From a virus, in UHGV virus genome UHGV-0182470: a stretch of 36,779 bases of DNA; one strand, written 5' to 3'. The notes below the pieces were generated by a model. The model was not told the origin of the DNA. It saw only the letters and a program-made list of their open reading frames with translations, and did not search any database. Both the position numbers and the translations under genes were made by a program. Below, piece after piece: positions 1 through 36,484 of this stretch; the first letter of the stretch is position 1, and every line of letters begins with the position of its first letter.

Positions 1-79
1 AATGTAAAGACTGACTAAGCATGTAGTACCGAGGATGTAGGAATTTCGGACGCGGGTTCAACTCCCGCCAGCTCCACCA
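1..79 (+). ncRNA. ssrA: tmRNA (SsrA) 3' portion, partial at left window edge
   Basis: Positions 1-79 read AATGTAAAGACTGACTAAGCATGTAGTACCGAGGATGTAGGAATTTCGGACGCGGGTTCAACTCCCGCCAGCTCCACCA, which I recognise as the 3' end (T-arm/acceptor, CCA) of enterobacterial tmRNA; 5' part lies outside the window. Confidence 0.85.
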
Positions 80-80
80 A
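35..80. repeat. attL core: 46-bp direct repeat shared with attR
   Basis: Sequence 35-80 is identical to 36439-36484 (ATGTAGGAATTTCGGACGCGGGTTCAACTCCCGCCAGCTCCACCAA); flanks diverge immediately outside. Confidence 0.85.
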
Positions 81-89
81 ATAAATCAA

Positions 90-119
90 GGGGTTACGTG
101 AAAGCGTAGCCCCTTTTTC
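90..119 (+). terminator. Rho-independent terminator downstream of tmRNA 3' end
   Basis: GGGGTTACG / CGTAGCCCC stem (G-U wobble) with TGAAAG loop followed by TTTTTC, ~10 nt after the CCA end. Confidence 0.6.
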
Positions 120-202
120 TTTGGTAGTGGCGGCAAAATGGCGACAGACTTTTGCGTCCATCTTGCCTGTCGCCATCTTGAAATCATGCAAAGAGGTTTC
201 AC

Positions 203-685
203 ATGGAAGAACTTCACTTTGTTTACATCAATGCAAATGGTCGTATCGGTGTTCACTCTATACAGAGCATCAGTTATAGCGAAAATCATATACAGGGCAT
301 TTGTAAGAACACCGATCGAATAAAAACCTTCCGAAAAGACCGCATTCTTAAACAGTACGATTCACCAGAACAAGCCATTCAGGAGTGCGCGTCATTCCTC
401 CCCGAAAACTACTCACATCTCACCAAGCAGTCTGGTCCGAAAAAAAATACATTCGATGTGTGTTTCACCGGATTTAAGAAAGCAGATAAAGAAAGATTGG
501 TTGATAAGGCGAATGAACAAGGATTAACGGTAAGAACCTCTGTAACCCAAAGCCTTCAGATGCTCTGTTGCGGTTACAATGCAGGCCCATCAAAAGTATC
601 GGCAGCCAGGATGAAAGGCACAATCATCATAGATGAGCCTGGCTTTATACATTTTCTTGAAACGGGTGAGATCCCAGATGAATAA
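203..685 (+). CDS. Cargo protein with C-terminal BRCT-like domain (N-terminal region ending in a TFRKDRI motif reminiscent of WYL domains)
   Basis: 160-aa ORF with AAGAGG RBS 6 nt upstream; C-terminal segment VCFTGF...GLTV...GYNAGPSKVSAARMKGTIIIDE resembles the BRCT domain at the C-terminus of NAD-dependent DNA ligase; sits between attL and ogr. Confidence 0.55.
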   Translation: MEELHFVYINANGRIGVHSIQSISYSENHIQGICKNTDRIKTFRKDRILKQYDSPEQAIQECASFLPENYSHLTKQSGPKKNTFDVCFTGFKKADKERLVDKANEQGLTVRTSVTQSLQMLCCGYNAGPSKVSAARMKGTIIIDEPGFIHFLETGEIPDE

Positions 686-711
686 AAACCTGCCGTAGCA
701 GGTTCTCTTTC

Positions 712-930
712 TCAAAAATTCATATGCCCCTGACCACCTGGCAATGGATGTGGAGGAGCAGTAGCAATCAGTGCGGGTGTCACAATAAACCGGACCACTG
801 TTTCATGGGTAACAAAAGTGCTCCCGCAGTTAATATTTTGGCACTGGCAGTAACGCTCTTTGGTGCTTTCTGTTACTTGAAAACTGCTCCTTGTGTGCGC
901 CGCATGACCACACTTCGGACAATTCATCAT
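712..930 (-). CDS. ogr: Ogr-type zinc-finger late gene activator (ORF extends to 975; likely start at the internal Met)
   Basis: Translation MMNCPKCGHAAHTRSS...KERYCQCQNINCGSTF...HPLP matches the C4 zinc-finger pattern of P2 Ogr / 186 B; located next to gene D as in P2. Confidence 0.85.
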   Translation of the reverse strand: MMNCPKCGHAAHTRSSFQVTESTKERYCQCQNINCGSTFVTHETVVRFIVTPALIATAPPHPLPGGQGHMNF

Positions 931-998
931 ATCCAGATCCCTACCTTTGCTATCAGAATCATTGTAATGATACACAAAATATCAATATTGAGAACACT

Positions 999-2099
999 TT
1001 ATTCCATTTCAAGATCATCAATCTTCACTTCGAGTTCAATACTGGTTGTAAAACCGTTATCCGGGCTGACGGTATGTGTCAGAGTCGTAATGGTCCATTC
1101 CGCATCATCTATCGGCTGTTTAAAGCCACTGACTTTCACTGGCATTTCCGTGTAGAGATCTGCCCGACCTTCCGCCAGTTGTAGCGAGAATGACGCAACG
1201 CCGCGTTGCAGGCGTTCCCACTGCATTTTCGCTGCCCGTTCAGCGTTGCTTCGGTTGGCATAAGTGCGATTAAGTACCAGCACGTTTTCATCCGTACCCA
1301 CCAGGTAATCGCCCTGCTTCGCTTCTGGCTCTTTCTTCTGCTTCTTAGTTCTGCGCTTACGCTTCACCGTGGTGCTTTCTTTCTTCGCGGGTTCGCGGGT
1401 ATGCAACCAGCTGGCAATTACGCCCGTGTAGGCTCCGCGATCTGCCAGGGTAAAGCGGTGACTGTCGCCGTCCTTGCGTGTGATAGTGATCACCGGCAGT
1501 GGTTTACCAGTGGCGCTTTTGCCCTGTCCCTGCCGGATGAATAACAGATTGCCATTTTTCACCGACGCGATGGCACCGTACTGGCGCGCCAGCCGCATCA
1601 GAAAACTGCCGTCACTCTCATTAGTCTGGTCTATATGCTCCACGGGCTTATCCGACAGGTCTTTACCCAGTGCCATCTTCAGCTTGTGACGCGCGGCTAT
1701 TTCCTTCACCACTTCCCCGACAGTGGTCTTGTGCCACGATTTTTCACGGCGGGTATTCAGCGTTTCCCTAAAATCAGCACTTCGCGCCCGGATAGTCAGG
1801 CGATCCGGTGCGCCAGTGTGTTCAATCTCGTCCACCGTGAATGCCCCTTTCGGGAAAAGCGGCTGCCCCTTCCAGCCCAGCGCCAGCGTGATGACCGCAC
1901 CACGGCGCGGCAGCACGATTTTTCCGTCGGCGTCGTCCAGTTCCAGATCAAGCTGGTCTGCTTCAAAGCCCCGATTGTCCGTCAGCGTCAGACTCATCAG
2001 GCGGTTATCCAGCACAGTGGTGATATCCTTTCCCTCAATACTGATGCTGAATGCGGGAGTTTTGTTGCCTTTGTTAAGCAGTTCAGAGCTGAAATTCAC
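999..2099 (-). CDS. D: Tail protein D (late control gene D family)
   Basis: 366-aa ORF; position (end of tail operon next to ogr) and sequence character match P2 gpD; overlaps stop of U by 4 nt. Confidence 0.85.
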   Translation of the reverse strand: MNFSSELLNKGNKTPAFSISIEGKDITTVLDNRLMSLTLTDNRGFEADQLDLELDDADGKIVLPRRGAVITLALGWKGQPLFPKGAFTVDEIEHTGAPDRLTIRARSADFRETLNTRREKSWHKTTVGEVVKEIAARHKLKMALGKDLSDKPVEHIDQTNESDGSFLMRLARQYGAIASVKNGNLLFIRQGQGKSATGKPLPVITITRKDGDSHRFTLADRGAYTGVIASWLHTREPAKKESTTVKRKRRTKKQKKEPEAKQGDYLVGTDENVLVLNRTYANRSNAERAAKMQWERLQRGVASFSLQLAEGRADLYTEMPVKVSGFKQPIDDAEWTITTLTHTVSPDNGFTTSIELEVKIDDLEME

Positions 2100-2581
2100 G
2101 ACAGCAGCCCTCCCACCGTTTTACTGATATCGCTTAAGGCAGACGTTGCCGTATCCTGCAAATTATTCAGCTGCGCACTGAGATCACCGAACATATCGGA
2201 CAGGGATTCATCCACCCGTTTGAGCGACAGCGTGAACTCAATCCGGCGCGGCATACCATCGCGGAAAAACTCCGTTTTAGTCTGATTCAGTCCCTCAATC
2301 ACATACATGCCGTAAATCGTGCCGCTGCCTTCAATCAGGGGCCATGCTTTTCCCTGTTCTGCCATCTGCTCCAGAGCCAGCAACGACAGCCTGCCGCCCG
2401 TTATCTCCGGCATAAGAACACCAGAAAGCGTCAGCATGTCGTTGTCCGGTCCCAGAAACTGCATGGACGGACGTCGGTTGACCCGGCTGTTTGCCGCATG
2501 TCGCCAGCTGCGTTGATACTGCAGTTCCTGATACGGCACAGTGCGCAGCATAAACACGTACAATCCCAGCACCATCATCAT
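2096..2581 (-). CDS. U: Tail protein U
   Basis: 161-aa ORF between tape measure and D, translationally coupled (ATGA overlaps) as in P2 T-U-D. Confidence 0.85.
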   Translation of the reverse strand: MMMVLGLYVFMLRTVPYQELQYQRSWRHAANSRVNRRPSMQFLGPDNDMLTLSGVLMPEITGGRLSLLALEQMAEQGKAWPLIEGSGTIYGMYVIEGLNQTKTEFFRDGMPRRIEFTLSLKRVDESLSDMFGDLSAQLNNLQDTATSALSDISKTVGGLLS

Positions 2582-5500
2582 GCGTCGTATCCCCCCTGAT
2601 CGCTGTAGTTACTCCTGGCTTTTGCCTTCAGCCTGCGTTCACGTTCATCAAGCTGGCGGGCCACCTCCCGCGCAATATCCTGCGCACTTTGTCCTGGCTG
2701 CGTCTGAATGATGATCTGCGTCGGTGCCTCAATCCGTTGAACGGGCGGCACAGTGGCTGCACGACTCACCATCGCTTCGCCGCCTTTCGAGGGAAGTGCC
2801 AAAGGATGCAACGGTGGAAGCTCTGCAGGCGCGGCAGCAACGCCCATCATTCCGGCAACAACGGCAGCCAGTGAAGCTGTATTTCTCCGGCTGGTCACAT
2901 TTGCCGGGCCGTTAACAATTTCCGGCCCGTTTTCACCGACGATGCCAAACTGCCCGCGCGGGATATAGCCGCCGCTGTCATACATCCCCGCAAAGCCATA
3001 TCCCCATGACGGAAAACCACCCGATGGCATCATCACTTTACCGTCTGCATTCACCGTCGCAGGTTGCTGACGCGTCACGCTTTCCGGCAGTTTCGCCTTT
3101 GCGGCCTCTTTACTGACAATGCCGAGTTTTTCCAGCAACCAGGATACGCCGGATTTCAGGGAGTCCAGCGGATGCATGACCATATTCAGCCCTTCCGCCA
3201 GCGCCTCCCCGAATCGTCGCCCCATTGCCGCTGCGCTCTGCAGTTCGGCAGAAGTCGACTTAACGGGCGTCAGCAAATCAGTAAACCAGCCCCACAGCGC
3301 CTGCACTTTGTCGCCAATCCACTGGAACACAGGCTTAAGCGGTTCGAATGCGGCACTGATGGGTCCTGCCGCCGCTTTGAATCCTTCCACCACGCCACCG
3401 AGAAATGCGGTGATGGGTTGCCAGTATTTCCAGACAACCAGCGCCACGCCCGCCAGTGCAGTAACCACAAGACCTATCGGACTGAGCAGAGCACCTAACA
3501 GACCAGATACGGCATACAGGGCAACGCGCAGCATCGCCAGTGGACCAGATGCCAGTACTCGCAGCACCGTGCCTGCGGCGGCCAGTCCACCGCGCAGTAC
3601 CGCCAGAGGATTCATAAACATCACAGCAGCAGCACGTAAACCGGATAATCCAGACCGGAACAGTGCAACCGGCGCACCTGCTACAGTTTTCAGGACATTC
3701 CCCGTCAGTGATGCCGTGCGACGCAAAGACGACAACGGAGCAGTAAGTAAACCCGCTGCGTTGCCCGATGAAGCAAGCCCGCGTCGCAGCAGTGCCAGTG
3801 GAGCGCCAGCTAACCAGGACAACGCGCTGCTGGTTCGTGTTACTGCTGCGGTAACGGAAGGTAACGTTTTGATACCCAGCACAGAGAATCCCAGACGGAT
3901 GACTGCCAGCGGCCCCAGCACTGCAGCCAGCGCCACCGCTAAGGTGCCGAGGCCTACGGTAACCGCAGCCACAACAGCCGCTACTTTCATCAGTGTGCCT
4001 GTCAGTTCCGGGTTAGCTTCCACCCAGCGGCGCAACGCCCCCGTGATGCTTTTCACCGTGTACAGAATATCCATCAGCGGCTGGCGCAGCGTTTCGCCCA
4101 GGCTGCTGAAGGTGTTCTGCGCTCCGGTTTTGACCAGCAACCACTGAGCAGAAAGTGAGTCTTTGTTGATGTCGGATTCTTTCTGCATGGAACCGAGCGC
4201 ATCATTGCCCGCTGTCAGTTTTAGCTGGCGCTGCAGTTCCGGAAGGTTGTTTGCCAGTTTCGCCGCGTCATCACCAAACTCTTTACCAAACAACATGGTC
4301 ATGGCAGACAGACGCTTGTCCTGCGGCAGTGCGTTCACCTTCTCCAGCACACGCTGGATAGTTCCCATCGCATCCTTCGTCATCTGCTTTTCAATCACTT
4401 CAGGATTGAGTTTCAGCAGATTCATCCCTTCAAAGAAACTCTTGCTTTGCATGGTGGCAATGGACAATTCACGCACCATCGCGTTTGCTGCACTGGCTGC
4501 AACCTCCGGTGCAGCGCCCAGTGTCAGGAAGGTGGAACCCAGCGCCGCCGCTTTACGATAATCCAGACGGTCAGCCACACCGCCCAGACGCTGCATCACA
4601 TCAATGATGTCCGCCCCTTTCGACATGGCGTTATCATCCAGAAAGTTCAGCGCATCACCGAGCTGTTCAATATTGCGGGTTGGTATTTTGTAGAGCTGGG
4701 CGATTTTCCCCAGACTTTCTGACAGTTCATCCGCTGGCAGCTCAAAGGCTGTTGCCGCTTTTGCTGCCGTACTGGCGAAGGCCAGCAGGTCACGTTTCTG
4801 GTCCTCCCAGCTGTCGTCAGGGTTTGCCACATTCATGCGCGCACCACCTTCAACCAGTGCGGCGAAGTCCACAGCACCGTTTTCCATTGGCAGCTGTTCA
4901 CTGGCAGCTTTGATGGCATCCTGCATTTCGTAAAAACGCGCAGTGCGGTTGCCATTATCGTCACGCAGACCATTGACCTGCTTTGCCACACCTTTCATGG
5001 CATCTTCCATGCTGGTATAGCTTTTTACCGCCGCCATCACTGGCGCGCCCATTGCCAGCCCTGCAGCCGTGGTGGTGGCTCCGGCTCCTGCGATGCGATC
5101 GCGCACTTCAAGCCGTCTTGAGTATTGTTCTCTGGCAACGTTCATCCGTGCCTGTTGTTCACCCAGACGTTTAAGTGCTTTTTGCTGGCCCTCCAGTGCC
5201 TGACGAGTTTCTTCGGCATTTTTCTTAAGTTCTCGCTGGGCACTACTGAGTTGTCTGGTATCAATCCCTGATTCTTTAAGTGCCTGACGTTGTCTCTGGA
5301 CCGCCCCCAACAAGCCGTTATAGGTCTGCTGAAGTTCCTGTACTCGTGTTTTGGCCTGACTGAATAACTTTGCTTGCGCGGCGGTTGGCCTGTTAGTGGC
5401 AGCAAATTGTGTGGCGAGTTTTGCCGCCTCTTCGCGGGCTGTGTTCAGGTTGTTGGCTGTTATGGCTAGTTGCGAGCGCGTCTTGCGAAATTCATCAATT

Positions 5501-5655
5501 CTGCCAGCCTGCTTATTCAGTTCTTTGAGGCTGTTTCGGGTATTCTGAATTGCGCCAGCCAGCTCTTTCGAACTGGCCTGTGCAGCACGGAATGGGCGGG
5601 TGAGTTTGTCAACCGCATTAAGAATGACCTGCAGGCGCAGGTTATTATCACTCAT
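2578..5655 (-). CDS. T: Tail tape measure protein
   Basis: 1025-aa ORF, coiled-coil N-terminus, Ala/Gly-rich hydrophobic repeats (LxxxAGxP...) in the middle; position after E/E'. Confidence 0.9.
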   Translation of the reverse strand: MSDNNLRLQVILNAVDKLTRPFRAAQASSKELAGAIQNTRNSLKELNKQAGRIDEFRKTRSQLAITANNLNTAREEAAKLATQFAATNRPTAAQAKLFSQAKTRVQELQQTYNGLLGAVQRQRQALKESGIDTRQLSSAQRELKKNAEETRQALEGQQKALKRLGEQQARMNVAREQYSRRLEVRDRIAGAGATTTAAGLAMGAPVMAAVKSYTSMEDAMKGVAKQVNGLRDDNGNRTARFYEMQDAIKAASEQLPMENGAVDFAALVEGGARMNVANPDDSWEDQKRDLLAFASTAAKAATAFELPADELSESLGKIAQLYKIPTRNIEQLGDALNFLDDNAMSKGADIIDVMQRLGGVADRLDYRKAAALGSTFLTLGAAPEVAASAANAMVRELSIATMQSKSFFEGMNLLKLNPEVIEKQMTKDAMGTIQRVLEKVNALPQDKRLSAMTMLFGKEFGDDAAKLANNLPELQRQLKLTAGNDALGSMQKESDINKDSLSAQWLLVKTGAQNTFSSLGETLRQPLMDILYTVKSITGALRRWVEANPELTGTLMKVAAVVAAVTVGLGTLAVALAAVLGPLAVIRLGFSVLGIKTLPSVTAAVTRTSSALSWLAGAPLALLRRGLASSGNAAGLLTAPLSSLRRTASLTGNVLKTVAGAPVALFRSGLSGLRAAAVMFMNPLAVLRGGLAAAGTVLRVLASGPLAMLRVALYAVSGLLGALLSPIGLVVTALAGVALVVWKYWQPITAFLGGVVEGFKAAAGPISAAFEPLKPVFQWIGDKVQALWGWFTDLLTPVKSTSAELQSAAAMGRRFGEALAEGLNMVMHPLDSLKSGVSWLLEKLGIVSKEAAKAKLPESVTRQQPATVNADGKVMMPSGGFPSWGYGFAGMYDSGGYIPRGQFGIVGENGPEIVNGPANVTSRRNTASLAAVVAGMMGVAAAPAELPPLHPLALPSKGGEAMVSRAATVPPVQRIEAPTQIIIQTQPGQSAQDIAREVARQLDERERRLKAKARSNYSDQGGYDA

Positions 5656-6084
5656 CGTTGGCCCCGCTTCTCTGAATCGCTTTATACCGCCATTCCAGCA
5701 CTTCGGTCAGCGGCATAACGTCAGTAACGGATGGCGGCCAGTGAAAGATGGTGGCGATATCAGCCACCAGATCGTCAACCGTCAGGCTGTCGGTAAACCG
5801 GCAAGCACCGACTTCTTCAACAAAAAAGTGACAACCTCAACCGACATGGCAGTGAGATCTGCCGGGTCCATCTCTGCAATTTCCTGTGCAGTCAGTGCCG
5901 GACTGGAGATGCGGGGGATCACGGTCATCATCGCGTTCACATCCATATCCATAATGGCCTGCAGGCGTGTACCGCGCAGCGCACCGGACTGCGGTTTACG
6001 CAGCACAATTTCGGTGATTTCTGTTTTACCGCGCTTGATGGGGGTATCCAGTTGAATAGTCTTTTCAGTCTGCTTATCGCTCAT
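5649..6084 (-). CDS. E+E': Tail assembly chaperone E+E' (-1 programmed frameshift product)
   Basis: Minus-strand reading ...GTC ACT TTT TTG TTG AAG... (heptamer at 5821-5827 on + coordinates); the -1 frame stays open for ~58 codons (FFVEEVGACRFTDSL...WRYKAIQRSGANDE) and stops at TGA overlapping the T start codon. Confidence 0.8.
5782..6084 (-). CDS. E: Tail assembly chaperone E
   Basis: 100-aa ORF upstream of tape measure; contains slippery heptamer T_TTT_TTG near its 3' end. Confidence 0.85.
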   Translation of the reverse strand: MSDKQTEKTIQLDTPIKRGKTEITEIVLRKPQSGALRGTRLQAIMDMDVNAMMTVIPRISSPALTAQEIAEMDPADLTAMSVEVVTFLLKKSVLAGLPTA

Positions 6085-6138
6085 TTTGCTGTCCTGTAAA
6101 TTGGGTTCTGGCGCGGTATCCCGCGCCGTTCAGATACA

Positions 6139-6654
6139 TCAGAGGCCGAGGGCGTTGCGGTGCGCTTCCATCAGGTCCACACCGTCCACAATTTCCACCA
6201 TGTTGATAAGGTCCACTTCATAGAGCACCTCACCATTTATAGTCAGCTTCGCGTAGCTGTTGGTACTGGTCACTTTGGTGGTGTTGCTTTCGCCCGTCTT
6301 CCACTCGCCGGAATCCACTTCTTTGTGACGTCCACGCACCACAAGCTCCACGGCCTGCACTTCCCCGGTATCGTCACGCTGGATAGAGCCGGTAAAGCGC
6401 AACTGGATACCATCCACCGTGGCTTTGCCCATCTGCTTAAACAGCAGCAGTTCAGTACCACCAATGGAAAATTCCGTATCCAGTGCGCCGTCATCCAGCC
6501 CCAGATCCACATCCACTGCACCCGGCATTCCGCCGCCGCGATACTTCTCATATTTGCGGGTAAATTTCGGCAGCGTCAGCGACTCAACGATCCCCTGCCA
6601 GTTGTTCCCGTCATTAAACAGGTTCAGGTGTTTTAATTTGCGTGGTAAAGCCAT
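6139..6654 (-). CDS. FII: Tail tube protein FII
   Basis: 171-aa ORF; size, position after sheath gene and sequence consistent with P2 gpFII. Confidence 0.9.
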   Translation of the reverse strand: MALPRKLKHLNLFNDGNNWQGIVESLTLPKFTRKYEKYRGGGMPGAVDVDLGLDDGALDTEFSIGGTELLLFKQMGKATVDGIQLRFTGSIQRDDTGEVQAVELVVRGRHKEVDSGEWKTGESNTTKVTSTNSYAKLTINGEVLYEVDLINMVEIVDGVDLMEAHRNALGL

Positions 6655-6663
6655 GTTGTCCCC

Positions 6664-7836
6664 TTACGCGCTGACCTGGCTGGAGAAATTCACCAGGTAC
6701 TGATCGGTGATGCGCTGACGCAGCATCAGGTTTTCAAGTGGCGGCACTGGCGTGTAGTCGTAGTCGATGGTGAGTTTTCCGGCTTTCAGCGTGTCTTTGT
6801 CGTTCACCGACTCATCCAGCCAGCAATCACCACCAATGAGATAGCCCTGACTGACCAGGCTGCGCATTTTGGCGCGGATACCCTCGATAATGTCGCGGGC
6901 CAGCGACGGATTCAGCGGTTTATCCACCGCCCACATGTGCGCTTCTGCCATCGTGTCCGTCAGCACCTGCGCCGTGCGGGTGTAGTTTTCGAAGGCAAAG
7001 AGCGGGTCATCACTCAGGCAGCGGGAACCCCAGAAGCGAAAACCGTCTTTGCGGATAAGGGTGGTGACGTCGTTCTGGTTCAGCAGTCCCGCATCGGTTG
7101 CCGGGTCCTGCAGATCCCAGAACACATCAGCAGAAATTCCGGTGACACCGTTAACGCCCACGTTGGACAGGCTTTTGTGCCATCCGGTCTGCTCGTCAAT
7201 TTTGGCGCGCAGACCAAGCGCACGGGCGGTGGCATAAGCCGTTGCTTCGGCATTCAGCACCGTGTCCCAGCCAGTAAAGTCGGGCCAGATCAGCATTCCT
7301 TCACGCTGACTGAAGTTTTCACGGTAAGTGATTGCTTCCTGCACCGTCTTGCAACCATACGCTGACAGGTAAGCAAATCCACGCAGGCTTTGCGCCACGC
7401 TCAGCAACTCAGTAGCTACCGCCTTCGTGTCGTGACCTGGCACGCCGAGAATGCGCGGTTTAACGCCGAGCTGTGACTGGGCAGATAACAGGGCTTTCAT
7501 GCCTGTTTTTTTACCTTCAGCGGTCACTGCTCCGATGATATTGGTCGTGGTTTCTTCTTCCGTTTCACCCTGCGGCACACGCACAACAACGGTCACGGGT
7601 TTTGCCTGGTCAGCGATGGCATCCAGCGAACGAGCCAGCGTGCCTGACTCACCCGCTTTACCGCTGGCAGTCAGCACATCAGTGATCAGCACGGGTTTAT
7701 TAAGAGGAAACATTTTTGCATCGGCATCATCGCCCGTGCAGACCATACCCACGATGGCGGTGCTCACCGTGGTAATGGATCGGGTGCCTTCGTTGACTTC
7801 AACAACGCGCACCCCGTGGTGGTAATCCTGAGCCAT
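6664..7836 (-). CDS. FI: Tail sheath protein FI
   Basis: 390-aa ORF starting [14 protein letters not shown]..., typical contractile sheath; first gene of F operon. Confidence 0.9.
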
Positions 7837-7978: not shown

Positions 7979-8551
7979 TCAGGGGGATTCATTACTCTTA
8001 TTTGCCGGAAATTTTCTATAAATTGTGGAAACACCCACATCAAAAATCAGTGCAATACGCTGTCTTGATTCTCCGGCCTCGAGTAAGCGTCCAATCTGTG
8101 CCCACTGTTCGGTAGTCAACTTAGGACGGCGTCCACCTACTCTGCCTTTGGCGCGAGCTGCAGCAAGCCCCGCCCTGGTACGTTCAACTATCAGTTCGCG
8201 TTCCATTTCAGCCAGGGCACCCATGACATGAAAAAAGAAACGGCCCATTGGGGTACTGGTATCAATACTGTCAGTCAGGCTTCGGAAATTCACACCTCGC
8301 TGGCGCAACTCTTCTATCAACGTAACAAGATGCCGCATACTGCGCCCCAACCTGTCCAGCTTCCAGACAACCAGCGTGTCTCCTGCCGATAGTGTCCTGA
8401 GCAGTTTTTTCAGCCCCGGTCTGTTGGACTTAGTGCCACTGATTTTGTCCTCAAAAATCCGCTCACATCCCGCGCAGTTCAGTGCATTACGTTGCAAATC
8501 GGTGTTCTGGTCATTTGTTGACACGCGTACATAGCCAATAAGCATGATCAA
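7979..8551 (-). CDS. Serine recombinase, DNA invertase (Hin/Gin/Cin/Pin family)
   Basis: 190-aa ORF MIMLIGYVRVSTNDQNTDLQ...GDTLVVWKLDRLGRS...C-terminal HTH; catalytic Ser motif YVRVST; lies 50 bp from an invertase crossover-type site. Confidence 0.9.
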   Translation of the reverse strand: MIMLIGYVRVSTNDQNTDLQRNALNCAGCERIFEDKISGTKSNRPGLKKLLRTLSAGDTLVVWKLDRLGRSMRHLVTLIEELRQRGVNFRSLTDSIDTSTPMGRFFFHVMGALAEMERELIVERTRAGLAAARAKGRVGGRRPKLTTEQWAQIGRLLEAGESRQRIALIFDVGVSTIYRKFPANKSNESP

Positions 8552-8600
8552 TCCCCTGAATAAAAACCGGGGATGATGCCAGTTAGCCGTTATCTCTGCA

Positions 8601-8626
8601 TTTTCATAAACGTTGGTTTGGGAGAA
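8601..8626. repeat. Invertase crossover site, left (hix/gix-like)
   Basis: TTTTCATAAACGTTGGTTTGGGAGAA; its reverse complement matches the first 14 nt of the site at 10056-10081 exactly (TTCTCCCAAACCAA). Confidence 0.75.
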
Positions 8627-27057: not shown

Positions 27058-27061
27058 TAAT

Positions 27062-27979: not shown

Positions 27980-28210
27980 TTAATGCAGCCAGCTGTCGTC
28001 TTCCCACACCTTCTGCATAATTTTCATCACTTGTTTTCTTTCTTCGTCCAGTTGCAGTCCGGTCAGTTCCACACCGTTAGAGCTACCTTTGCGGATACGA
28101 ATTACCGTTTTGGGATACAGGGGGCGCAGATTGCGGTAAAGCTCGGATTCAAGGGCGTCCAGTGTAGACTGGCTAACCTTCTGCTCTTTATCGATCATTA
28201 TTTCAATGCG
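27980..28210 (-). CDS. dinI: DinI-family protein (ORF track extends to 28285; start at MRIEIMI)
   Basis: MRIEIMIDKEQKVSQSTLDALESELYRNLRPLYPKTVIRIRKGSSNGVELTG...KIMQKVWEDDSW aligns along its length with E. coli DinI as I recall it. Confidence 0.8.
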   Translation of the reverse strand, partial: RIEIMIDKEQKVSQSTLDALESELYRNLRPLYPKTVIRIRKGSSNGVELTGLQLDEERKQVMKIMQKVWEDDSWLH

Positions 28211-28223
28211 CATAAAAGTCACC

Positions 28224-28412
28224 TCAGCTGATGACATCCATTGAGCGGTTGTATTCGTGGGTTCTGATTTTTGCCATAAGTTCATCTGTCAGTTCAGAAA
28301 CCCACTGCAGGGCCAGCCCCTTCTCTTCATCACTACACTCACTAGCCGCTACAAGCTTAAGAAAAAAATCAATGCGCTGGAGCTTCAAAGACTCCAAAAA
28401 ATAGTCCTGCAT
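28224..28412 (-). CDS. Small acidic hypothetical protein, first gene of LexA-boxed operon (Tum-like antirepressor candidate)
   Basis: 62-aa ORF immediately downstream of a LexA box and upstream of the dinI-like gene; functional assignment is inference only. Confidence 0.4.
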   Translation of the reverse strand: MQDYFLESLKLQRIDFFLKLVAASECSDEEKGLALQWVSELTDELMAKIRTHEYNRSMDVIS

Positions 28413-28454
28413 CTTTCCTCCTATGACACCAAAGCAATACTGTATATATAACCA

Positions 28455-28470
28455 CTGTTTATATTTACAG
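28455..28470. promoter_or_regulatory. LexA (SOS) box
   Basis: CTGTTTATATTTACAG is a perfect CTGT-N8-ACAG palindrome with AT-rich spacer; a second half-site-like CTGTATATATAACCAC lies just upstream. Confidence 0.65.
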
Positions 28471-28564: not shown

Positions 28565-30979
28565 TTAATACAGGTTTCGCCACTTATCATCTTCCTGCAA
28601 ACGCTGGTTCCGATAGAAGATACGCAGGCCTGCTCCTGATGGAATACTGCCGCCGCGAAGCAGTAAATCGACCTCTTTCTCGCTGCCATCAAATCCCCTG
28701 GACTTCAGTTCATACACGAGCTGCTGTCGCTGATGATCTGTAATTCGCTGTTTGTAGTCTTTACGCCGTTTCGGTTTCACAAGGCGTAACCTTGCTGCCA
28801 GTTCCCGGCGCTCTTTTTTGCTCATACTGTGCAGGTAATCGTGCAACTCCTTGTCATCCATGCGGGTGATATCCGTTCTGGTATCTCCATCAGCTGATTT
28901 GTCTTTCCCTTGTTGGTACAAATTTTCAGCAAGGGGACAGTTATTGCCACGAGTCCAAGGGGCGCAAGCGCCCTGGTCGGCTGCCGCCTCCTGAATGTCA
29001 ACGGCCTTACGAACCATTTTCCACTTCACGGCATGAGTGCAGATCTTGCCCTCTGCAATAGGTGACCAGATGCCATAAATACGAATGCCGTGATCGCCAT
29101 AGGCGGTCGGCTCTTCGTTGATTTCATAAGCAGTTCTGATGAGGTGATATTTGCGGGGAACCAGTACGCCGCCCTGCTTCATGATGTAGGTGGCAAAACA
29201 ACCAGCATCAGCAGCAGCCAGGATTGCATCAAGGCGCGGGTTATCCAGTACCGGCGCACCTGCTTTTTTGTCCCCCTGTTGCCTTGCCGCCTGACCAGCC
29301 AGCAATCGCAGTTCACGGTAAGCCTGACGCCCCGGAATGCCAAAGAAGCGGAATTGCTGAACACGATGCAGAGACGCCCAGGCATTAACGTATTCAGCAT
29401 TATCACGCAGGGATTTCCCCGTTTCCTTGCTGATCTCGCCAGCCAGACCACGCCCGTCAATGTTCTTACTGATGTATTTCGCGATGTAGCTTGTTGGCGT
29501 ACCTTTGCGCGGGTTAATCAACTCAGACTTAAAGCGCGGTCCAGTGTTATTGCCCAGCTCCTCGCGGTCTTCACGGATGGCAAACTTACGCAGTAATGCA
29601 GTGATGGCGCGGCGGTCTTTTTTGCGCATAAAACACAACAGGTGCCAGTGAACTGTACCGTCATGATGCGGCTCAGCCACCCGCACGCCATACCAGCGCA
29701 ATCCGGCTTTGTGCATCGCCTTACGAAATGCAGCAAACATGCCGACCAGATAATCACTACTTTGTCTTACCGTCGCATTTGTCCAGGTTGGGTTGGGCCT
29801 GCCGTTATTTAGCGTGGAATGGAAACGTGACGGACAGGTGATGGTGTAGAAAACGGCGCAGTCACCGCGCATTTCCGCGATAAGCTCCAGACCTTTAACA
29901 CAGGCCATCATCTCATTGCGGCGATGCGCAGGGTTGCTGCTGCTGGCGTTTACCACATCCTCCATGTCCAGCGTGTCGCCGTCTTCGTTCACCAGTTCAT
30001 GAGAACGGAAAAACTCCAGCGACTTACGGCGCTGCTCACGTTTATGCATCACGGCTTCATAGCTGACATAAGGAGATGCTTTTTTGCTAACCAGGCAGAC
30101 AGCGCGCAACTGCTCTTCCCGCCATTCGCAACGCATCTTCCATAATTTCCGATACCACCAGTCAGCGCACAACATACGCGCCAGCGAACCCGGAATGAGT
30201 TCATAGGGCACGGGTTTACGGCGGTTTCTTTTCCGGCGGAGTTGCTCAAACGCAGGCGGGATGACATCCAGACGCAGGGTTTCCGCTGCCACCTTTTCCC
30301 ATGTATTGCGGATTTCTTCTGGCTTAACGTCATCGGTGACATACAAATCGCCACAAGCTGCATCAAGGCACATGCTCATATGCGCAGCGACAAGGGTAGA
30401 CAAGCGTTTCACCTGATCCTGACTCATTTCAGGCAGGATCAGCAGGCCGTCCAGCCCTTCATGGCTTGCCATAAAGCGAAAAGAAGTGGATAGCTGACTG
30501 TCGCGTACATGCTCCAGTCGTTCCAGACATGGCTTAATCGTCTCACGCAAATAGCGGGAATAAGCCTTTGGCCTGCCCAGGCTGCTGAAGTATTCAATAC
30601 GTTGCATCAGCGGCTTGCTGATATGGGAAGGCTGGGCATTGACGTCCGCCAGAATGACCATGTCCGGGTTAAAACGCTGCTGCTCATGCGCCAGCTTTGC
30701 CCGACTAATGAGCTTATCCTGCTCCATTTCGCGCTGGACAGGATCACGGGATTCATTAAAGAAATAACGCTCCCAGACCTGATCACTCAGCGCCTCACGG
30801 CGCAGCTGTTCCTGCTCGTTATCGGCAGCGTACAGAGTGATCAGATTTGAAAGCGCAGAAACCGGCGCAACTTCCGCCGGGTCCAGATAAGGGTTAATGG
30901 CCTTTTTCGGGCTGTTCCATGAGAATGCTGCGGCGACCTCGTTAAAGCCGCTGCAGTTGTTCATATCAGCATGGCTCAT
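28565..30979 (-). CDS. A: Replication initiation endonuclease A (rolling-circle type)
   Basis: 804-aa ORF; size, position and sequence character match P2/186 gpA. Confidence 0.85.
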
Positions 30980-31833
30980 GCACGCACTCCGTACACGGCA
31001 GAACTATCCACGCCACGCGAAGGATCAAATCCCACCCAGCAGCGCGGCCCGGAAACAGCGATGATTTCTGTTGCTGATTTACCCTCGCCAGCTGCCACAC
31101 CGATGCTGCGTTTTACCTTGATATAGTGGTGAGTAAAATTGCGATACAGCGAACGAATCAGGGATGTGTCACTGTTAGAAACAATGACCGGATGTCCTTC
31201 AGATGATCGATGTTCAAGAACGGATGCCAGGTGATACTGGTCATCTTCAGTGAAACCATCAGTGTGATAGCCGGAAAACGTACCGTCATACGGCGGATCG
31301 CAATACACCACATCCCCCGCCTTCAACATCGCCAGCGTTTCATCAAAGCTGGTGCAGATAAACGTTGCCCGCTGGGCTTTTTCTGCAAATGCGCGAATTT
31401 CTTTTTCAGGGAAATACGGATTTTTATAATTACCGTAGGGAATGTTGAAATGCCCGCTCTTGTTATAGCGACATAAACCACGGTAACCGTGACGATTGAG
31501 ATACAGGAAATATACCGCTTTCATGAAATCAGTAATTTCAGTTGAGTAATTAAACTCCTGCCTTATGTTGTAATAAGCTACCTCCCTGTTTGCGATCTCA
31601 AATAAAACTCTGGCGCGAGATATAAACGATTCACAATCAGCGGCAACCTTTTTATAGAGGTTGATTAAATCAGGATTAATATCCGCAACCAGATAGCTGG
31701 GGTAATCCGTCTCCATCATCACAGCACAAGAACCCGCGAAAGGTTCAACCAGTCGCGGGCCAGCAGGAAGATGTTTTTTCAGTTCGGACATTATGGCAGT
31801 TTTATTTCCCGCCCATTTCAGGATGGTGCTCAT
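30976..31833 (-). CDS. dam: DNA adenine methyltransferase (Dam-like)
   Basis: From internal Met [11 protein letters not shown]...[10 protein letters not shown]...DPPY; motifs I and IV of Dam-type MTases; overlaps A start (ATGA). Confidence 0.85.
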
Positions 31834-32057
31834 ACAGCACCTCCGTTGTAATGTTTGCCTTTCAGCTCTGCGATTTCCTGACAGGTAATGCAAAGCTGCA
31901 CACCCGGAATGGCACGGCGGCGTGCTGGCGGAATTGGCGCTTCACACTCAATGCAAAGCACGCGGGACACGCCCGGCGTTTTGGCACGGGCAGCACGGAT
32001 ATGGCGTTGGCGTTCTTCTTCAACGCGCTGCTGTACGAGATCCATTGCATCAGCCAT
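31830..32057 (-). CDS. TraR/DksA-family C4 zinc-finger protein
   Basis: 75 aa with CIECEAPIP...CITCQ spacing typical of TraR/DksA phage proteins. Confidence 0.7.
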   Translation of the reverse strand: MADAMDLVQQRVEEERQRHIRAARAKTPGVSRVLCIECEAPIPPARRRAIPGVQLCITCQEIAELKGKHYNGGAV

Positions 32058-32296
32058 TAGTGGATCTCCTGCGCTTCGTTCTGGATTGCTTCAGCAGTCA
32101 CACGAAGCAGTTCTGCCGCTTCGACGTGGGTTAGCTGGCGGGATGTGATATGACACGCCAGGCTATCAAGGCGAGCTGCCATTGCTTCAGCCCTTGCCCG
32201 GCGTTCTTCCAGACGAGCCTCTGTCAGTAAAATATTAAGCCCTGCGTCATCCGGTCCGGTTTTGGTCGAGAGGGTTTCAATATTACGCATAATCAA
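32057..32296 (-). CDS. Hypothetical early protein
   Basis: 79-aa ORF in the early operon, coupled to neighbours. Confidence 0.5.
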   Translation of the reverse strand: MIMRNIETLSTKTGPDDAGLNILLTEARLEERRARAEAMAARLDSLACHITSRQLTHVEAAELLRVTAEAIQNEAQEIH

Positions 32297-32357
32297 TTCT
32301 CCTAAATTTAGATAAAGGGATGCCCGGCGGGTTTACGCCATTAATTTCATTAGTTGG

Positions 32358-32699
32358 TTAATTCGGCATGGTTAGCCGTCTGGGAAATAAGCTCACCACT
32401 GCACGAAAATGATTCATTGCTTTAATCAACTCCCGCTTTTCGTCAGTGGTCAGCTCATTAATGCTGATGCTATGACGTTCAGCTGGAATTTTTGCCATAA
32501 AGAATATGGCAGCCAGTGCCCGTTTATTTTGTTCGCTATTAATATCCCGTGGATTACGCATATCTTTAATAAACTGCTCAAGCTCTGACTCAATATTCAG
32601 GCCAAAAACTTTCGCTCTTAACTCCGCAATATGATTAAGTCCATTCAGGCGCTCACCGGGGCTTAATGGAACAGTTGCTGCAGCGCCATTAATTGCCAT
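32358..32699 (-). CDS. Hypothetical early protein
   Basis: 113-aa ORF in the early operon. Confidence 0.5.
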   Translation of the reverse strand: MAINGAAATVPLSPGERLNGLNHIAELRAKVFGLNIESELEQFIKDMRNPRDINSEQNKRALAAIFFMAKIPAERHSISINELTTDEKRELIKAMNHFRAVVSLFPRRLTMPN

Positions 32700-32721
32700 A
32701 CTTCATATCCCCCAAACGCAG

Positions 32722-32946
32722 CTATCGTTCTTTGTTCTTACGGTAACGCTCAAGAGGAGATACATTTTTTCGTATCGTCTCTTTAACCTGCTCTCCCCGT
32801 AAAAACGTCCCATCCTTTAACGTGAAAAAGTAACTGCCATCGCCCGACAATGACGGATAGCAACAGAGCAAATCATCTTCAGGTACTGAATAACTCTCCC
32901 CTCTGTAACGAAACTGATAAACCACTTCACTTTCTGCCGCATACAT
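32722..32946 (-). CDS. Hypothetical early protein
   Basis: 74-aa ORF with ACGGAG RBS-like sequence upstream. Confidence 0.5.
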   Translation of the reverse strand: MYAAESEVVYQFRYRGESYSVPEDDLLCCYPSLSGDGSYFFTLKDGTFLRGEQVKETIRKNVSPLERYRKNKER

Positions 32947-33113
32947 TTGGACTTTCTCCGTTTCCTCGTGGTCAATTCAGACAGCAATTCATCTTGTGAA
33001 TGACATGGATGCCAGCGTTTTCCATCCTCACCCGTGATCCAGCCGTGACCGTAGTGCATTGCCGGACTTTGTTTTACCAGCAGCGACGCAAATGATGGTT
33101 CTTTCGTCAGCAT
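32817..33113 (-). CDS. Hypothetical small early protein (3' extent uncertain; overlaps next ORF in another frame)
   Basis: ATG at 33113 with GAGGTG RBS; N-terminal ~55 aa look protein-like, the remainder overlaps the 32722-32946 ORF. Confidence 0.3.
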   Translation of the reverse strand: MLTKEPSFASLLVKQSPAMHYGHGWITGEDGKRWHPCHSQDELLSELTTRKRRKSKCMRQKVKWFISFVTEGRVIQYLKMICSVAIRHCRAMAVTFSR

Positions 33114-33120
33114 AAGCACC

Positions 33121-33630
33121 TCACAGCAAACCGAATGAAGCACCGAGGCCAGTCACAGTATCAACTGCACTCGCCATCGCAGGGTTAGCCTGTAAACGGG
33201 CCTGCAATGAAACAGCCGCCAGCGCCATCAGTCGTGTTACAGAATTAATGCTGCTGATGGCATCACGACGACCGGCACTGGTTTTTACATCGCCAGATAC
33301 CGCACCTGCAGCAACACGCCCGATCTCTGCGGTTGCACTCATGACGTAATGCGGCAGTTTCTCTTTTGCTACCTCATTAATCGGTACACATGGCAGGCAG
33401 TGAATCTGTGCCAGAAAACCATCTATCAGCGTTGAATCTTCAGTCAGATCGGTAAGCAGCCAGATTTCTGGCGCATTGAGCTGATGCGGTTGATCTGGGT
33501 TGAGTTTGTTTCGCAGAGTCTGGACATTCATTCCTGCACGTTCTGCCAGCTTCGCCATATTGTGACGAAGTGCAAAAGCTCTACAGGCTTCATCAAAATG
33601 CGGGTGTTTGGAAATCTTATAATCAAACAT
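33121..33630 (-). CDS. cII: CII-like lysogeny establishment regulator (186 CII family)
   Basis: MFDYKISKHPHFDEACRAFALRHNMAKLAERAGMNVQTLRNKLNPDQPHQ... aligns closely with phage 186 CII as I recall it. Confidence 0.85.
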   Translation of the reverse strand: MFDYKISKHPHFDEACRAFALRHNMAKLAERAGMNVQTLRNKLNPDQPHQLNAPEIWLLTDLTEDSTLIDGFLAQIHCLPCVPINEVAKEKLPHYVMSATAEIGRVAAGAVSGDVKTSAGRRDAISSINSVTRLMALAAVSLQARLQANPAMASAVDTVTGLGASFGLL

Positions 33631-33662
33631 GCTACCCCCTTAGAAAGTTCTCATAATTGAAC

Positions 33663-33905
33663 TTACTTACCAACAATGACGCGGAAGTTGGAATGACCGA
33701 GGGATTCACGGACCTGATCGGTTTTGTACATTAAATAACGCAGGCTTACGCGGCCTTTGTTTTTTTCCTTCTTGACCATGTATTTAGCAAGCTGACCATG
33801 GTGAATTTTTTGATACACAGAGCCGCGGGAGATACCTTCCCATTCAGCGAACTCAGCAGGCGTTGCCATCTCTTTTGGTACACGAATTGAAATATCAGTA
33901 CTCAT
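33663..33905 (-). CDS. apl: Apl/Cox-like excisionase and lytic-switch regulator
   Basis: 80-aa HTH-like protein, first gene of the lytic operon, divergent from cI. Confidence 0.65.
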   Translation of the reverse strand: MSTDISIRVPKEMATPAEFAEWEGISRGSVYQKIHHGQLAKYMVKKEKNKGRVSLRYLMYKTDQVRESLGHSNFRVIVGK

Positions 33906-34021
33906 AGTGCAGTATCTCTTAGTTTGGTTTCGTTTTATCTTGTTTTATGTGGTTTGGTTTTGCTTTTCAAACCATGAATGGATATTAAGATCACTTTTTA
34001 TATACGTCAAGAGGTTTGATT
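33906..34021. promoter_or_regulatory. Lysis/lysogeny switch region (divergent/face-to-face promoters and operators)
   Basis: 116-bp intergenic region between apl and cI with repeated GTTTGGTTT elements and an inverted GGTTTG...CAAACC pair. Confidence 0.5.
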
Positions 34022-34654
34022 ATGAGTTTAATCAAAGCGGGAAATGATAGTGGTGGGCGCGATGCAATTAACAGGCTTATTAAGGCTTACAACTTCAGCT
34101 CACGACAGCAGCTCTGCGAACATCTGGAAGTATCCAAAAGCACTATGGCTAACAGATACTTAAGGGATAGCTTTCCTGCCGAATGGGTAATTCAATGTGC
34201 CCTTGAAACAGGAGCTTCCCTTCTATGGCTGGCTACTGGTCAAGGAGATATGTATGCGTGTGAGAACGAAGAAACAAATCTCAAAAATGAACCTCCCGTC
34301 ACTGTAAGACCACTTTCTAAGATCGTTGCTCCTAGCATCAAACGTGTTGAACTGAAGAACGGCGAACTGCAGGCAAGTGATGAAATTCTTCTTGATAGCA
34401 GCCTGCTCGATGGTGACTCATCCAACGCTTTATTTGTTAAAACAGCTAATAATAGCTTTGTAGTGGATACGTCCGTTAAACAAGTCAGTAATGGCTTCTG
34501 GTTAGTCGATATGGACGGAGTTAAAAGCATCGTCAAAATTGCGCGCATACCCGGAAACAAAATAGTAGTTAGCCAAGATGACACTTCATTTGAATGTTCT
34601 GTAGATGATGTGGAAGTCGTAGGACGTGCAGTCAAAGTAATCAAGAACCTCTAA
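34022..34654 (+). CDS. cI: CI immunity repressor (186 type)
   Basis: ATG 34022 with AAGAGG RBS (track start 34016 is a TTG); N-terminal HTH region; immediately upstream of int. Confidence 0.8.
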   Translation: MSLIKAGNDSGGRDAINRLIKAYNFSSRQQLCEHLEVSKSTMANRYLRDSFPAEWVIQCALETGASLLWLATGQGDMYACENEETNLKNEPPVTVRPLSKIVAPSIKRVELKNGELQASDEILLDSSLLDGDSSNALFVKTANNSFVVDTSVKQVSNGFWLVDMDGVKSIVKIARIPGNKIVVSQDDTSFECSVDDVEVVGRAVKVIKNL

Positions 34655-34657
34655 CTT

Positions 34658-35674
34658 ATGACCATCAGAAAACAGCCGAACGGAAAATGGTTGTGTGAGT
34701 GCTATCCCAATGGACGCAATGGTAAGCGCGTGCGTAAGCAATTTGCTACCAAAGGCGAAGCCATTGCATTTGAAAGCTTCACAATGGAAGAAGTGAACAA
34801 AAAACCGTGGTTAGGAGAAAAGGATGATCGGCGACACCTATCAGAATTAATTGAGCTTTGGTATTCCCTGTATGGTCAGACACTCGCAGACCCCAAGCGC
34901 CTCATGGCGAAACTTAGAATTATCTGTAATGGTCTAGGCGACCCCATCGCCTCAGAACTGACAGCCGGTGACTTTACGAAATACCGCGAAGCACGGTTAA
35001 AAGGTGAAGTACGAAATGAAGATGGCACGTTTATGTCGCCCGTTAAGCCCCGCACGGTAAACCTTGAACAGCGCAATCTATCATCTGTTTTTGGTACGCT
35101 GAAAAAGCTGGGCCACTGGTCAGCCCCCAACCCGCTTGCTGGGCTGCCAACATTTAAAATTGCTGAGAGTGAATTGGCGTTCCTGACCCCGGAAGAAATT
35201 AAACGTCTGCTGGATGCCTGCGCCGATTCTCAAAGCTCCAGCCTGCTTTTGATTGCAAAAATATGCCTGGCCACCGGCGCACGCTGGAGCGAAGCCGAAA
35301 ACCTGCAGAGTCATCAGGTATCAAAATACCGTATCACTTATACCAAGACCAAAGGCAAGAAAAACCGAACTGTGCCTATTTCTAAGGATTTATATGAAGA
35401 ACTGCCTAAGAATAGGGGGAAGTTATTCACCCCATGCAGAAAAGCCTTTGAGCGTGCAGTAAAGCGGGCTGGTATCGATCTGCCAGAGGGTCAATGTACT
35501 CACGTTCTGCGTCATACATTCGCTAGCCATTTTATGATGAATGGTGGAAACATATTGGTTTTGCGGGATATCCTAGGACATTCAGATATAAAAATGACCA
35601 TGGTCTATGCACACTTCGCCCCAGACCATTTAGAAGATGCCGTAACTAAAAATCCTTTATTTAATTTGAGGTAA
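34658..35674 (+). CDS. int: Tyrosine integrase
   Basis: 338 aa; C-terminal catalytic region HVLRHTFASHFMMNGG...LGHSDIKMTMVYAH with R..H..R..Y signature. Confidence 0.9.
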   Translation: MTIRKQPNGKWLCECYPNGRNGKRVRKQFATKGEAIAFESFTMEEVNKKPWLGEKDDRRHLSELIELWYSLYGQTLADPKRLMAKLRIICNGLGDPIASELTAGDFTKYREARLKGEVRNEDGTFMSPVKPRTVNLEQRNLSSVFGTLKKLGHWSAPNPLAGLPTFKIAESELAFLTPEEIKRLLDACADSQSSSLLLIAKICLATGARWSEAENLQSHQVSKYRITYTKTKGKKNRTVPISKDLYEELPKNRGKLFTPCRKAFERAVKRAGIDLPEGQCTHVLRHTFASHFMMNGGNILVLRDILGHSDIKMTMVYAHFAPDHLEDAVTKNPLFNLR

Positions 35675-35684
35675 GTAGTAATTT

Positions 35685-36353
35685 ATGAATAGCGAACTAG
35701 AGTTACTTATAAAAATATTATTCCCTTCCCTATCTGCCATTATATCCTTATTAGGGCTTAAAACAGGGTGGACTTATAAAAAAGATAAACTATTCACATC
35801 ACGTAAAAACATTAGCGAATTTTCATATCAGATGTATAAAAGCAGTGAAGATCCGACCTTCAAAAAACTGGCGGAAGATTACGGCATTGCTGCATTAACC
35901 AAAGATAACACATTGACAAAAAAACAAAGACTAATATTACTCAACACAACAAACCCCGTTAGCGATATAGATAATTATTCCAAATGTCAAAGTCTAATTT
36001 CCATTACCACCCATAAAGAAATATTCGCATGGAATAAAAAAAGATATAAATACAGCATATATAGAAAATTAATAAAAATCATAACAACTCTAATTTACTT
36101 CATGAGCAGTCTCATCGTAGCACTTCCTTTCAGTTATTCTGTTGTAGTAAGTGCTAAGATGATGGAGAAGATAAACCATCTAACTACTTGGCAATACTTT
36201 GGTTTAAGCAGCTATTTTGTGGTATCGGGAGTAGCAATATGCTTTATCTGCCTAGATAAGCTCTCCAAGATTAAGATCGCCGAGAGATTAATCGTTTCGA
36301 ATAGGCGTTTAGGCGACAAATGCAGTGGCGGCACTTTGGCGGCAGAAAGTTAA
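35685..36353 (+). CDS. AT-rich cargo membrane protein (two predicted TM helices)
   Basis: 222-aa ORF between int and attR; hydrophobic segments IKIITTLIYFMSSLIVALPF and YFGLSSYFVVSGVAICFICL. Confidence 0.6.
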   Translation: MNSELELLIKILFPSLSAIISLLGLKTGWTYKKDKLFTSRKNISEFSYQMYKSSEDPTFKKLAEDYGIAALTKDNTLTKKQRLILLNTTNPVSDIDNYSKCQSLISITTHKEIFAWNKKRYKYSIYRKLIKIITTLIYFMSSLIVALPFSYSVVVSAKMMEKINHLTTWQYFGLSSYFVVSGVAICFICLDKLSKIKIAERLIVSNRRLGDKCSGGTLAAES

Positions 36354-36438
36354 AAACCCATAAAACGGACAGACACCGCATAAATCTAACCAACTGAAAA
36401 TCAAAGCAAATCATTGTTTTTACAGACATTGAAATGCT

Positions 36439-36484
36439 ATGTAGGAATTTCGGACGCGGGTTCAACTCCCGCCAGCTCCACCAA
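36439..36484. repeat. attR core: 46-bp direct repeat (displaced ssrA 3' end copy)
   Basis: Identical to 35-80; preceded by non-ssrA sequence, so this is the partial duplicate. Confidence 0.85.

Follow-up and report, generated by a model that had tools for sequence, protein, structure and literature searches.

A Fels-2-like prophage of the Peduoviridae in the ssrA gene of Escherichia coli, bounded by a 46-bp common core

We analyzed the UHGV virus genome UHGV-0182470, a stretch of 36,779 nt referred to here in its full length as the window, and found it to be a temperate phage of the Peduoviridae integrated in the Escherichia coli chromosome. We read it as a member of the Fels-2/186-like group that entered ssrA, the gene for transfer-messenger RNA (tmRNA), by recombination of its attachment site (attP) with the 3′ end of that gene, and we give this reading a probability of roughly 95%. 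The arrangement is a textbook case of Campbell integration with a 46-bp common core. A tyrosine integrase of the P2/HP1 family would have recombined attP, which carries its own 46-bp copy of the core, with the ssrA 3′ end. The finding is correct but already known in kind, as the integration of Fels-2 and SopEPhi into ssrA has been published. It confirms the textbook view that ssrA is a favored site and that phages of the P2 family carry the 3′ end of the gene together with a terminator, leaving the host with a working tmRNA. It also sets the exact boundaries of this prophage for annotation, at 81–36438 plus one core.

The left end of the window, positions 1–79 on the plus strand, is the 3′ part of ssrA (tmRNA nucleotides 285–363). 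The Rfam tmRNA model RF00023 scored 76.2 bits here against a gathering score of 47, covering model positions 292–374 of 374; the match is truncated at its 5′ end solely by the window edge and contains the T-arm, the 3′ strand of the acceptor stem, and the terminal CCA. This truncation is also why ARAGORN called no tmRNA in the window. In E. coli VCSW8, which is 100% identical to window positions 1–240, these bases form the end of a complete ssrA of 363 nt downstream of smpB (295.8 bits, model positions 1–374). A preliminary description of this DNA had taken its left end for the end of ssrA, and both the Rfam match and VCSW8 bear this out.

The longest repeat of the whole window is an exact 46-nt direct repeat at 35–80 and 36439–36484, with a spacing of 36,404 bp. 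The preliminary description had reported these two copies as exact and in direct orientation, correctly, and had described them as the last 46 nt of ssrA, which needs a small amendment. The mature tmRNA terminates with its CCA at 79, so that the repeat takes in the final 45 nt of ssrA and the base that follows. The copy at 35–80 (plus strand) is the common core of attL, the gene-side junction, where it completes ssrA as expected of a prophage in a tRNA or tmRNA gene; the copy at 36439–36484 (plus strand) is the common core of attR and represents a displaced partial ssrA 3′ end. By our own arithmetic, an exact 46-mer repeat has a chance expectation of ∼1e-19 in 36.8 kb, and the same architecture occurs in independent complete genomes. 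A repeat that arose by chance or through an assembly artifact is refuted on these grounds and keeps only a negligible probability. The attL junction (window positions 1–200) was found in 174 of 5426 complete E. coli genomes, and a 99.9%-identical prophage sits at ssrA in at least nine genomes.

To place the junctions, we aligned four sequences: the empty site of E. coli CH4797 (attB), attP of the free form of the isolated Escherichia phage Cartapus, and attL and attR of the window. In CH4797, ssrA is followed directly by a ypjA-like flank. The left side of attL equals the left side of attB, and its right side equals the right side of Cartapus attP. Conversely, the right side of attR equals the right side of CH4797 attB, and its left side resembles the left side of attP. 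Exactly 46 bp are common to all four sequences. The two junctions are, thus, reciprocal hybrids of attB and attP, and the ends of the Fels-2 genome give the same picture: the Fels-2 record is written in prophage order, and both of its ends carry the same core, which its annotators joined into attP. The rejoined Fels-2 ends and the free Cartapus attP each comprise the core, a hairpin, and arm repeats. Moreover, to the left of the attR core, the window is homologous to the left arm of attP in both phages, paired arm repeats included. At attR, an inactive 45-nt ssrA fragment leads into the old host flank with its native hairpin and then into the 3′ end of a host ypjA/EhaD-like autotransporter gene (36645–36779, minus strand), as annotated in CH4797, E. 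coli 2012EL-2448, and VCSW8. The empty site in a related strain and the excised form of attP, both anticipated in the preliminary description, have in silico counterparts in CH4797 and in isolated Cartapus, respectively.

The phage copy of the core is identical to the host sequence, and attL therefore regenerates a full-length ssrA. It had been proposed that phage DNA supplies the 3′ end of the tmRNA. Strictly, this holds only for the bases 3′ of the crossover and has no consequence for the sequence, the copies being identical; the real change is an exchange of terminators, described below. Strand exchange would have taken place within the 46-bp core, and the symmetric T-arm (GCGGG-TTCAACT-CCCGC) is a plausible point for it. 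The identity of the two cores also means that excision of the prophage should restore wild-type ssrA. This predicted outcome, which differs from that of CP4-57, the cryptic element at ssrA in E. coli K-12, is of value for annotation.

The integrase is encoded at 34658–35674 on the plus strand and belongs to the Fels-2 subgroup of the P2/HP1 family. It carries the Pfam domains Int_N and Phage_integrase (PF24624 and PF00589, respectively) and is 92.3% identical to Fels-2 Int and 94% identical to Cartapus Int. It matches the catalytic domain of HP1 integrase (1AIH) at 2.5e-67, with the ARWSE, HVLRH, GHS, and YAH motifs conserved and the catalytic Arg, His-x-x-Arg, His, and Tyr residues in place. 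As in Fels-2, the gene lies at the attR end and reads toward attR, which is the normal P2-type layout and not an oddity. The preliminary description had likewise put the integrase at this end, although its wording that the gene stands next to the core does not hold, as a 222-aa cargo open reading frame (ORF; 35685–36353) separates the two. With Int 34.6 kb away from ssrA, a core of 46 bp, and an intact distal copy, the element does not have the makeup of a CP4-57- or P4-type island. The CP4-57 integrase gene, intA, belongs to a different family and directly adjoins ssrA on the K-12 map. A P4-like satellite or a CP4-57-type island was, hence, ruled out by the family and the position of the integrase.

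Short repeats flank the core on both sides. The P′ arm has three copies of TGGCGRCA, two of them direct (128–135 and 139–146) and one inverted (168–175), and the P arm has two direct copies of TGGCGGCA that start 11 nt apart at 36326 and 36337 (36326–36344, plus strand). TGGCGRCA occurs 13 times in the window against 3.9 expected, and 5 of the 13 copies lie within ∼115 nt of the cores. These core-adjacent copies are kept in Fels-2 and Cartapus, although the neighboring sequence diverges, and other lineages have a repeat pair at the same position as the P′ arm copies. Motif count and conservation together point to the paired repeats on both arms as putative arm-type binding sites of Int.

Between the repeats lies the genome of a P2-type phage. 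A megablast search against phage records placed it in the Peduoviridae, with Cartapus as the best match (81% of the first 25 kb at 96.7% identity); many Klebsiella and Salmonella Fels-2-like records also matched. We then queried the window with 46 annotated Cartapus proteins (tblastn). Of these, 37, all of the backbone, matched at full or near-full length with 57–100% identity, most of them at 88–100%: ogr, D, U, T, E/E′, FII, FI, the invertase, I, J, W, V, S, R, the lysis genes, X, L, M, N, O, P, Q, A, Dam, CII, Apl/Cox, and Int. Seven accessory proteins had no match, and two tail-fiber proteins matched in part. The late genes form the P2-type set in the P2-type order, Q P / O N M L X, lysis, R S V W J I H, FI FII E T U D, and ogr, with the cohesive-end site (cos) between Q and A. 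With the 37 backbone genes and cos accounted for, the earlier statement that a complete P2/186-type genome lies between the repeats was upheld.

The backbone genes are distributed as follows. Ogr and the tail genes D, U, T, E/E′, FII, and FI occupy 712–7836 on the minus strand (98–100% identity to full-length Cartapus proteins by tblastn, with the PGAP names of VCSW8), and the baseplate genes I, J, W, and V occupy 11114–13541 on the same strand (96–99% to Cartapus). The block at 15671–24039 (89–100% to Cartapus) holds gpS, gpR, the lysis cassette, X, L, M, N, and O on the minus strand and terminase P and portal Q on the plus strand. The cos region was placed at 26226–26377, with the cohesive-end junction near 26283/26284, by homology to the joined linear ends of Cartapus (89% match), which are annotated as P2-like cos; the exact P2 cos 19-mer is absent from the window. 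The early operon (28565–33905, minus strand, 88–100% to Cartapus) encodes the gpA replication endonuclease, Dam, a DksA-like protein, DUF2732 and DUF5347 proteins, Fil, CII, and Apl/Cox, the last being an excisionase-repressor at 33663–33905.

The lysogeny switch is of the 186 type, with CI, Apl, and CII all present. The CI immunity repressor (34022–34654, plus strand) matches Pfam Phage_CI_repr at 8e-33 and Phage_CI_C at 2.5e-40. It is just 57% identical to Cartapus CI, and the two phages are therefore of different immunity types. Comparison with Cartapus further identified, on the minus strand within 27983–28470, a DinI/Tum-like gene (27983–28213) and a 62-aa ORF (28227–28412). Just upstream of this operon is a perfect LexA box, CTGTTTATATTTACAG (28455–28470), the sole LexA-box match in the window. 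Read from the sequence, this box suggests SOS-inducible derepression, as in phage 186. Following SOS induction, a LexA-controlled Tum/DinI-like antirepressor would allow Apl/Cox and Int to excise the prophage. With its 36,404 bp, the element therefore appears to be a complete genome of the P2/186 type that is probably SOS-inducible, and the prophage looks viable.

Some points weigh against this reading. At 36,404 bp, the genome is ∼3 kb longer than that of Cartapus (33,368 bp), its closest isolated relative, and one cargo gene, for an HNH endonuclease, is broken by a frameshift and a nonsense codon. Excision, induction, particle formation, and use of the terminator by ssrA are predictions from the sequence. 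With identical cores in attL and attR, the sequence does not reveal the position of the crossover, and the lysogen loci with variant ssrA cores that were examined for it have a single junction each. Nothing contradicts the reading, however. The length and the broken gene would fit a defective, cryptic prophage that can neither excise nor form particles, a fixed island like CP4-57. Yet each shared backbone gene of an isolated, plaque-forming relative has a match of full or near-full length, mostly at 88–100% identity; cos, int, apl/cox, cI, and the LexA-box operon are all intact; the att cores are identical; and the broken gene is an accessory one. The additional length is not exceptional either, with records of 35.5–37.4 kb from the same group in the phage collection. 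We consider a defective prophage improbable and favor an apparently intact, temperate phage.

Integration has changed the sequence that follows ssrA. The terminator scan and folding identified an intrinsic terminator at 88–122 (plus strand), with a 12-bp stem (88–115), a GAAA loop, and a T-run to ∼122. The hairpin begins 9 nt past the CCA and folds with −19.8 kcal/mol (z = −4.6). The core continues into this hairpin in free Cartapus and also in Fels-2, which marks the hairpin as phage DNA; the Fels-2 copy has U-A in place of U-G at one stem position, with pairing kept. The preliminary description had rightly located a terminator on the prophage side of the core, but at 90–119, coordinates that do not agree with the stem found here. 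The native hairpin now stands beyond attR at 36610–36638, with a 10-bp stem (36610–36633; −16.8 kcal/mol, z = −3.2) and a T-rich tail; it is identical in the empty site of CH4797. In empty-site strains, its equivalent is the first terminator-like hairpin after ssrA, ∼126 nt downstream, and it also faces the convergent autotransporter gene. Integration has, thus, exchanged the terminators, and ssrA has acquired the phage hairpin, which presumably now serves it. On the other side, the plus-strand terminator scan from 35600 to the window end called no site, and the cI-int-ORF222 transcript would therefore now run via the ssrA fragment toward the native hairpin. This topology is plain from the sequence, and the swap may have a regulatory effect.

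Directly behind the ssrA terminator and in the same orientation is a 160-aa accessory ORF between attL and ogr (203–685, plus strand; phrog_2561, 2e-77), with a weak BRCT match and a likeness to the C terminus of NAD ligases. It is 98.8% identical to Cartapus gp32 and absent from Fels-2. By eye, it has a good ribosome-binding site, and a sigma-70 promoter scan of positions 1–800 gave no match upstream of it. Its expression could rely on transcripts that read through from ssrA (in the prophage) or from the int operon (in the free phage).

We examined how widely the hairpin occurs next to the core with an exact-match search (window region 77–122) that joined the end of the core to the A-tract and the 5′ half-stem; conservation of the 5′ stem among the matches is, thus, by construction. 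The matches came from 33 species-representative genomes and from at least 120 viral contigs, and most of them follow ssrA. After the hairpin, there was almost always a pair of direct repeats ∼11 nt apart, and by this pair, the loci (L007–L159) fell into three groups. The TGGCGRCA group contains 101 loci, with P2-like late genes downstream where this was checked in species-representative genomes. A GTCCAC group, also of ssrA-targeting elements but with arm repeats unrelated to TGGCGRCA, has 34 loci, and no P2-like late genes were found downstream of the genome loci checked. In the third group, of eight cases, the hairpin stands behind the 3′ end of an ordinary tRNA gene; the taxa are distant, and every case has a repeat pair of its own (for example, L019, L022, L028, and L037). 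Unlike the 5′ stem, the cores and arm repeats were not fixed by the search, and their diversity next to a single hairpin points to a common attP module and favors the reading of the repeats as putative arm sites.

One may go further and view the hairpin beside the core as a conserved, portable part of attP rather than an incidental terminator. In the free phage, it would end the cI-int-cargo transcript; on integration, it would be handed to ssrA, and the int operon would run via the ssrA fragment to the native hairpin. If so, the swap could set expression of int and cargo differently in prophage and free phage, in the manner of the sib-like retroregulation of lambda, and it could also alter 3′ processing of the tmRNA. 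The ORF at 203–685 might then be expressed by read-through from the strong ssrA promoter in lysogens only. Taken together with these effects on expression, this view is speculative, and we would rate it as rather unlikely.

Several loci of the survey (L013, L018, L023, L106, and others) have short ssrA fragments that miss one T (CGCCAGC-CCACCA) before a Fels-2-type hairpin and arm. These fragments indicate tandem arrays, in which a second element would have inserted in the ssrA copy at attL of a resident Fels-2-like prophage.

Such arrays at ssrA raise the question of whether the window is itself a composite of two or more ssrA-targeting elements, the right-hand core having come from an element other than the P2-like genome. 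The window has no T-less ssrA fragment of this type, however, and it holds a single integrase, a single cos, and a single phage gene set, with neither a third core copy nor a second integrase between 81 and 36438. The right-hand copy is also preceded by DNA with homology to the left attP arm of both Cartapus and Fels-2, paired repeats included, which ties it to the same phage. A composite origin is, thus, highly improbable, and we keep to a single prophage bounded by its own attL and attR.

The GC profile revealed four AT-rich inserts (∼35% GC) in a backbone of 54–60% GC. The first (13781–15595, plus strand, 35% GC), between the baseplate gene for gpV and the tail-completion gene for gpS, encodes a 604-aa protein with a GmrSD_N (DUF262) domain and a Schlafen AlbA_2 domain (Pfam, 1.7e-17 and 5e-6, respectively; PADLOC NsnA, 2.9e-23). 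A PDB sequence search with this protein gave only a marginal match. The insert is not present in Cartapus, Fels-2, or E. coli 2012EL-2448; the latter strain matches the attR end at 100% but carries a shorter relative.

The second insert lies on the portal side of cos and consists of two genes. One is the broken HNH endonuclease gene (24097–25070; HNH_2, 4e-9), in which the reading frame shifts after 24396 and an in-frame TAA follows at 24555–24557, leaving the 319-aa profile of phrog_21425 spread over two ORFs; the locus is likewise annotated as two coding sequences in VCSW8, with positions unchanged. The other is a 342-aa ORF (25127–26155, minus strand) of phrog_19461, a family with no assigned function, for which there was no Pfam match and the PDB sequence search was empty.

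On the gpA side of cos, the third insert (26494–27721, plus strand) encodes a stand-alone RNase A-like toxin of the CdiA-CT type (PF18431, 6.6e-20) and a CdiI_2 immunity protein (PF18593, 2e-9). The pair was found in 12 of 5426 complete E. coli genomes. The toxin had no tblastn match among 50,697 phage records and no match in a PDB sequence search. In a different P2-like prophage (L006), the same slot is taken by a 92%-identical copy. The pair may be a defense or addiction module of the toxin/immunity type.

The fourth insert is the 222-aa ORF between int and attR (plus strand; phrog_21256, 7e-155). It belongs to a PHROG family of unknown function and had no Pfam or PDB match; its translation has hydrophobic stretches, as judged by eye. 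The int-attR interval is a minor P2 cargo slot.

The cargo positions coincide with accessory and defense hotspots described for P2-like phages, namely the gpA-portal interval next to cos (PMC9122126) and the int-att interval and sites within the late genes (bioRxiv 10.64898/2026.02.27.708500). The four slots mapped here hold candidate antiphage genes, and the rare toxin/immunity pair may merit testing for defense.

The tail-fiber region (7979–11117) has a structure of its own. A Gin/Cin-type DNA invertase (7979–8551, minus strand), 99.5% identical to Cartapus gp23, adjoins an invertible tail-fiber segment bounded by 33-nt inverted repeats at 8601–8633 and 10049–10081, and tail fiber H is encoded at 9375–11117 on the minus strand. 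The 1.4-kb segment beside the invertase carries alternative tail-fiber C termini and looks like an invertible host-range switch.

Among known systems, CP4-57 of E. coli K-12 resembles the window element in using the 3′ end of ssrA and in supplying the sequence downstream of the gene. It differs in its distal ssrA copy, which lacks T357, whereas the two copies in the window are identical. Excision of CP4-57 deletes T357 and so inactivates the tmRNA (PMC10107115). By contrast, a table in the same article, citing Williams 2003, lists ssrA elements with P2-type integrases as keeping an intact distal copy.

Phages 186 and HP1 share with the window element a P2-family integrase and an extended core by which the RNA gene is restored (PMC3448106), but their targets are tRNA genes and not ssrA. 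The target of HP1 is tRNA-Leu. That of 186 is tRNA-Ile (PMC3448106). Phage 186 also resembles the window element in its CI/Apl/CII/Fil switch with a LexA-controlled antirepressor-like gene.

Cartapus (Peduoviridae, Elveevirus; NC_070909) is an isolated phage with late genes ∼97% identical in DNA to those of the window, 37 backbone proteins in common, and an identical attP core, hairpin, and P′ arm. Its four cargo positions all hold different genes (an RES protein, DUF4145, gp46/47, and gp14), the RES-domain gene standing where the window has the 222-aa ORF between int and attR, and its tail-fiber C-terminal cassettes differ from those of the window.

Salmonella phage Fels-2 (Felsduovirus Fels2, NC_010463; from S. 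Typhimurium LT2) and its relative SopEPhi use the same site at the 3′ end of ssrA, as stated in a passage of PMC3448106 that cites Pelludat 2003. Fels-2 has the same core, hairpin, and TGGCGRCA arm repeats, an Int 92.3% identical to that of the window, and the same prophage order: ssrA, ogr, late genes, cos, early genes, cI, int, and attR. The window element differs in its E. coli host, in its accessory genes, including different cargo close to cos, and in the GmrSD/Schlafen insert between gpV and gpS. Moreover, the attL-ogr and int-attR intervals contain no gene in Fels-2 but one each in the window element.

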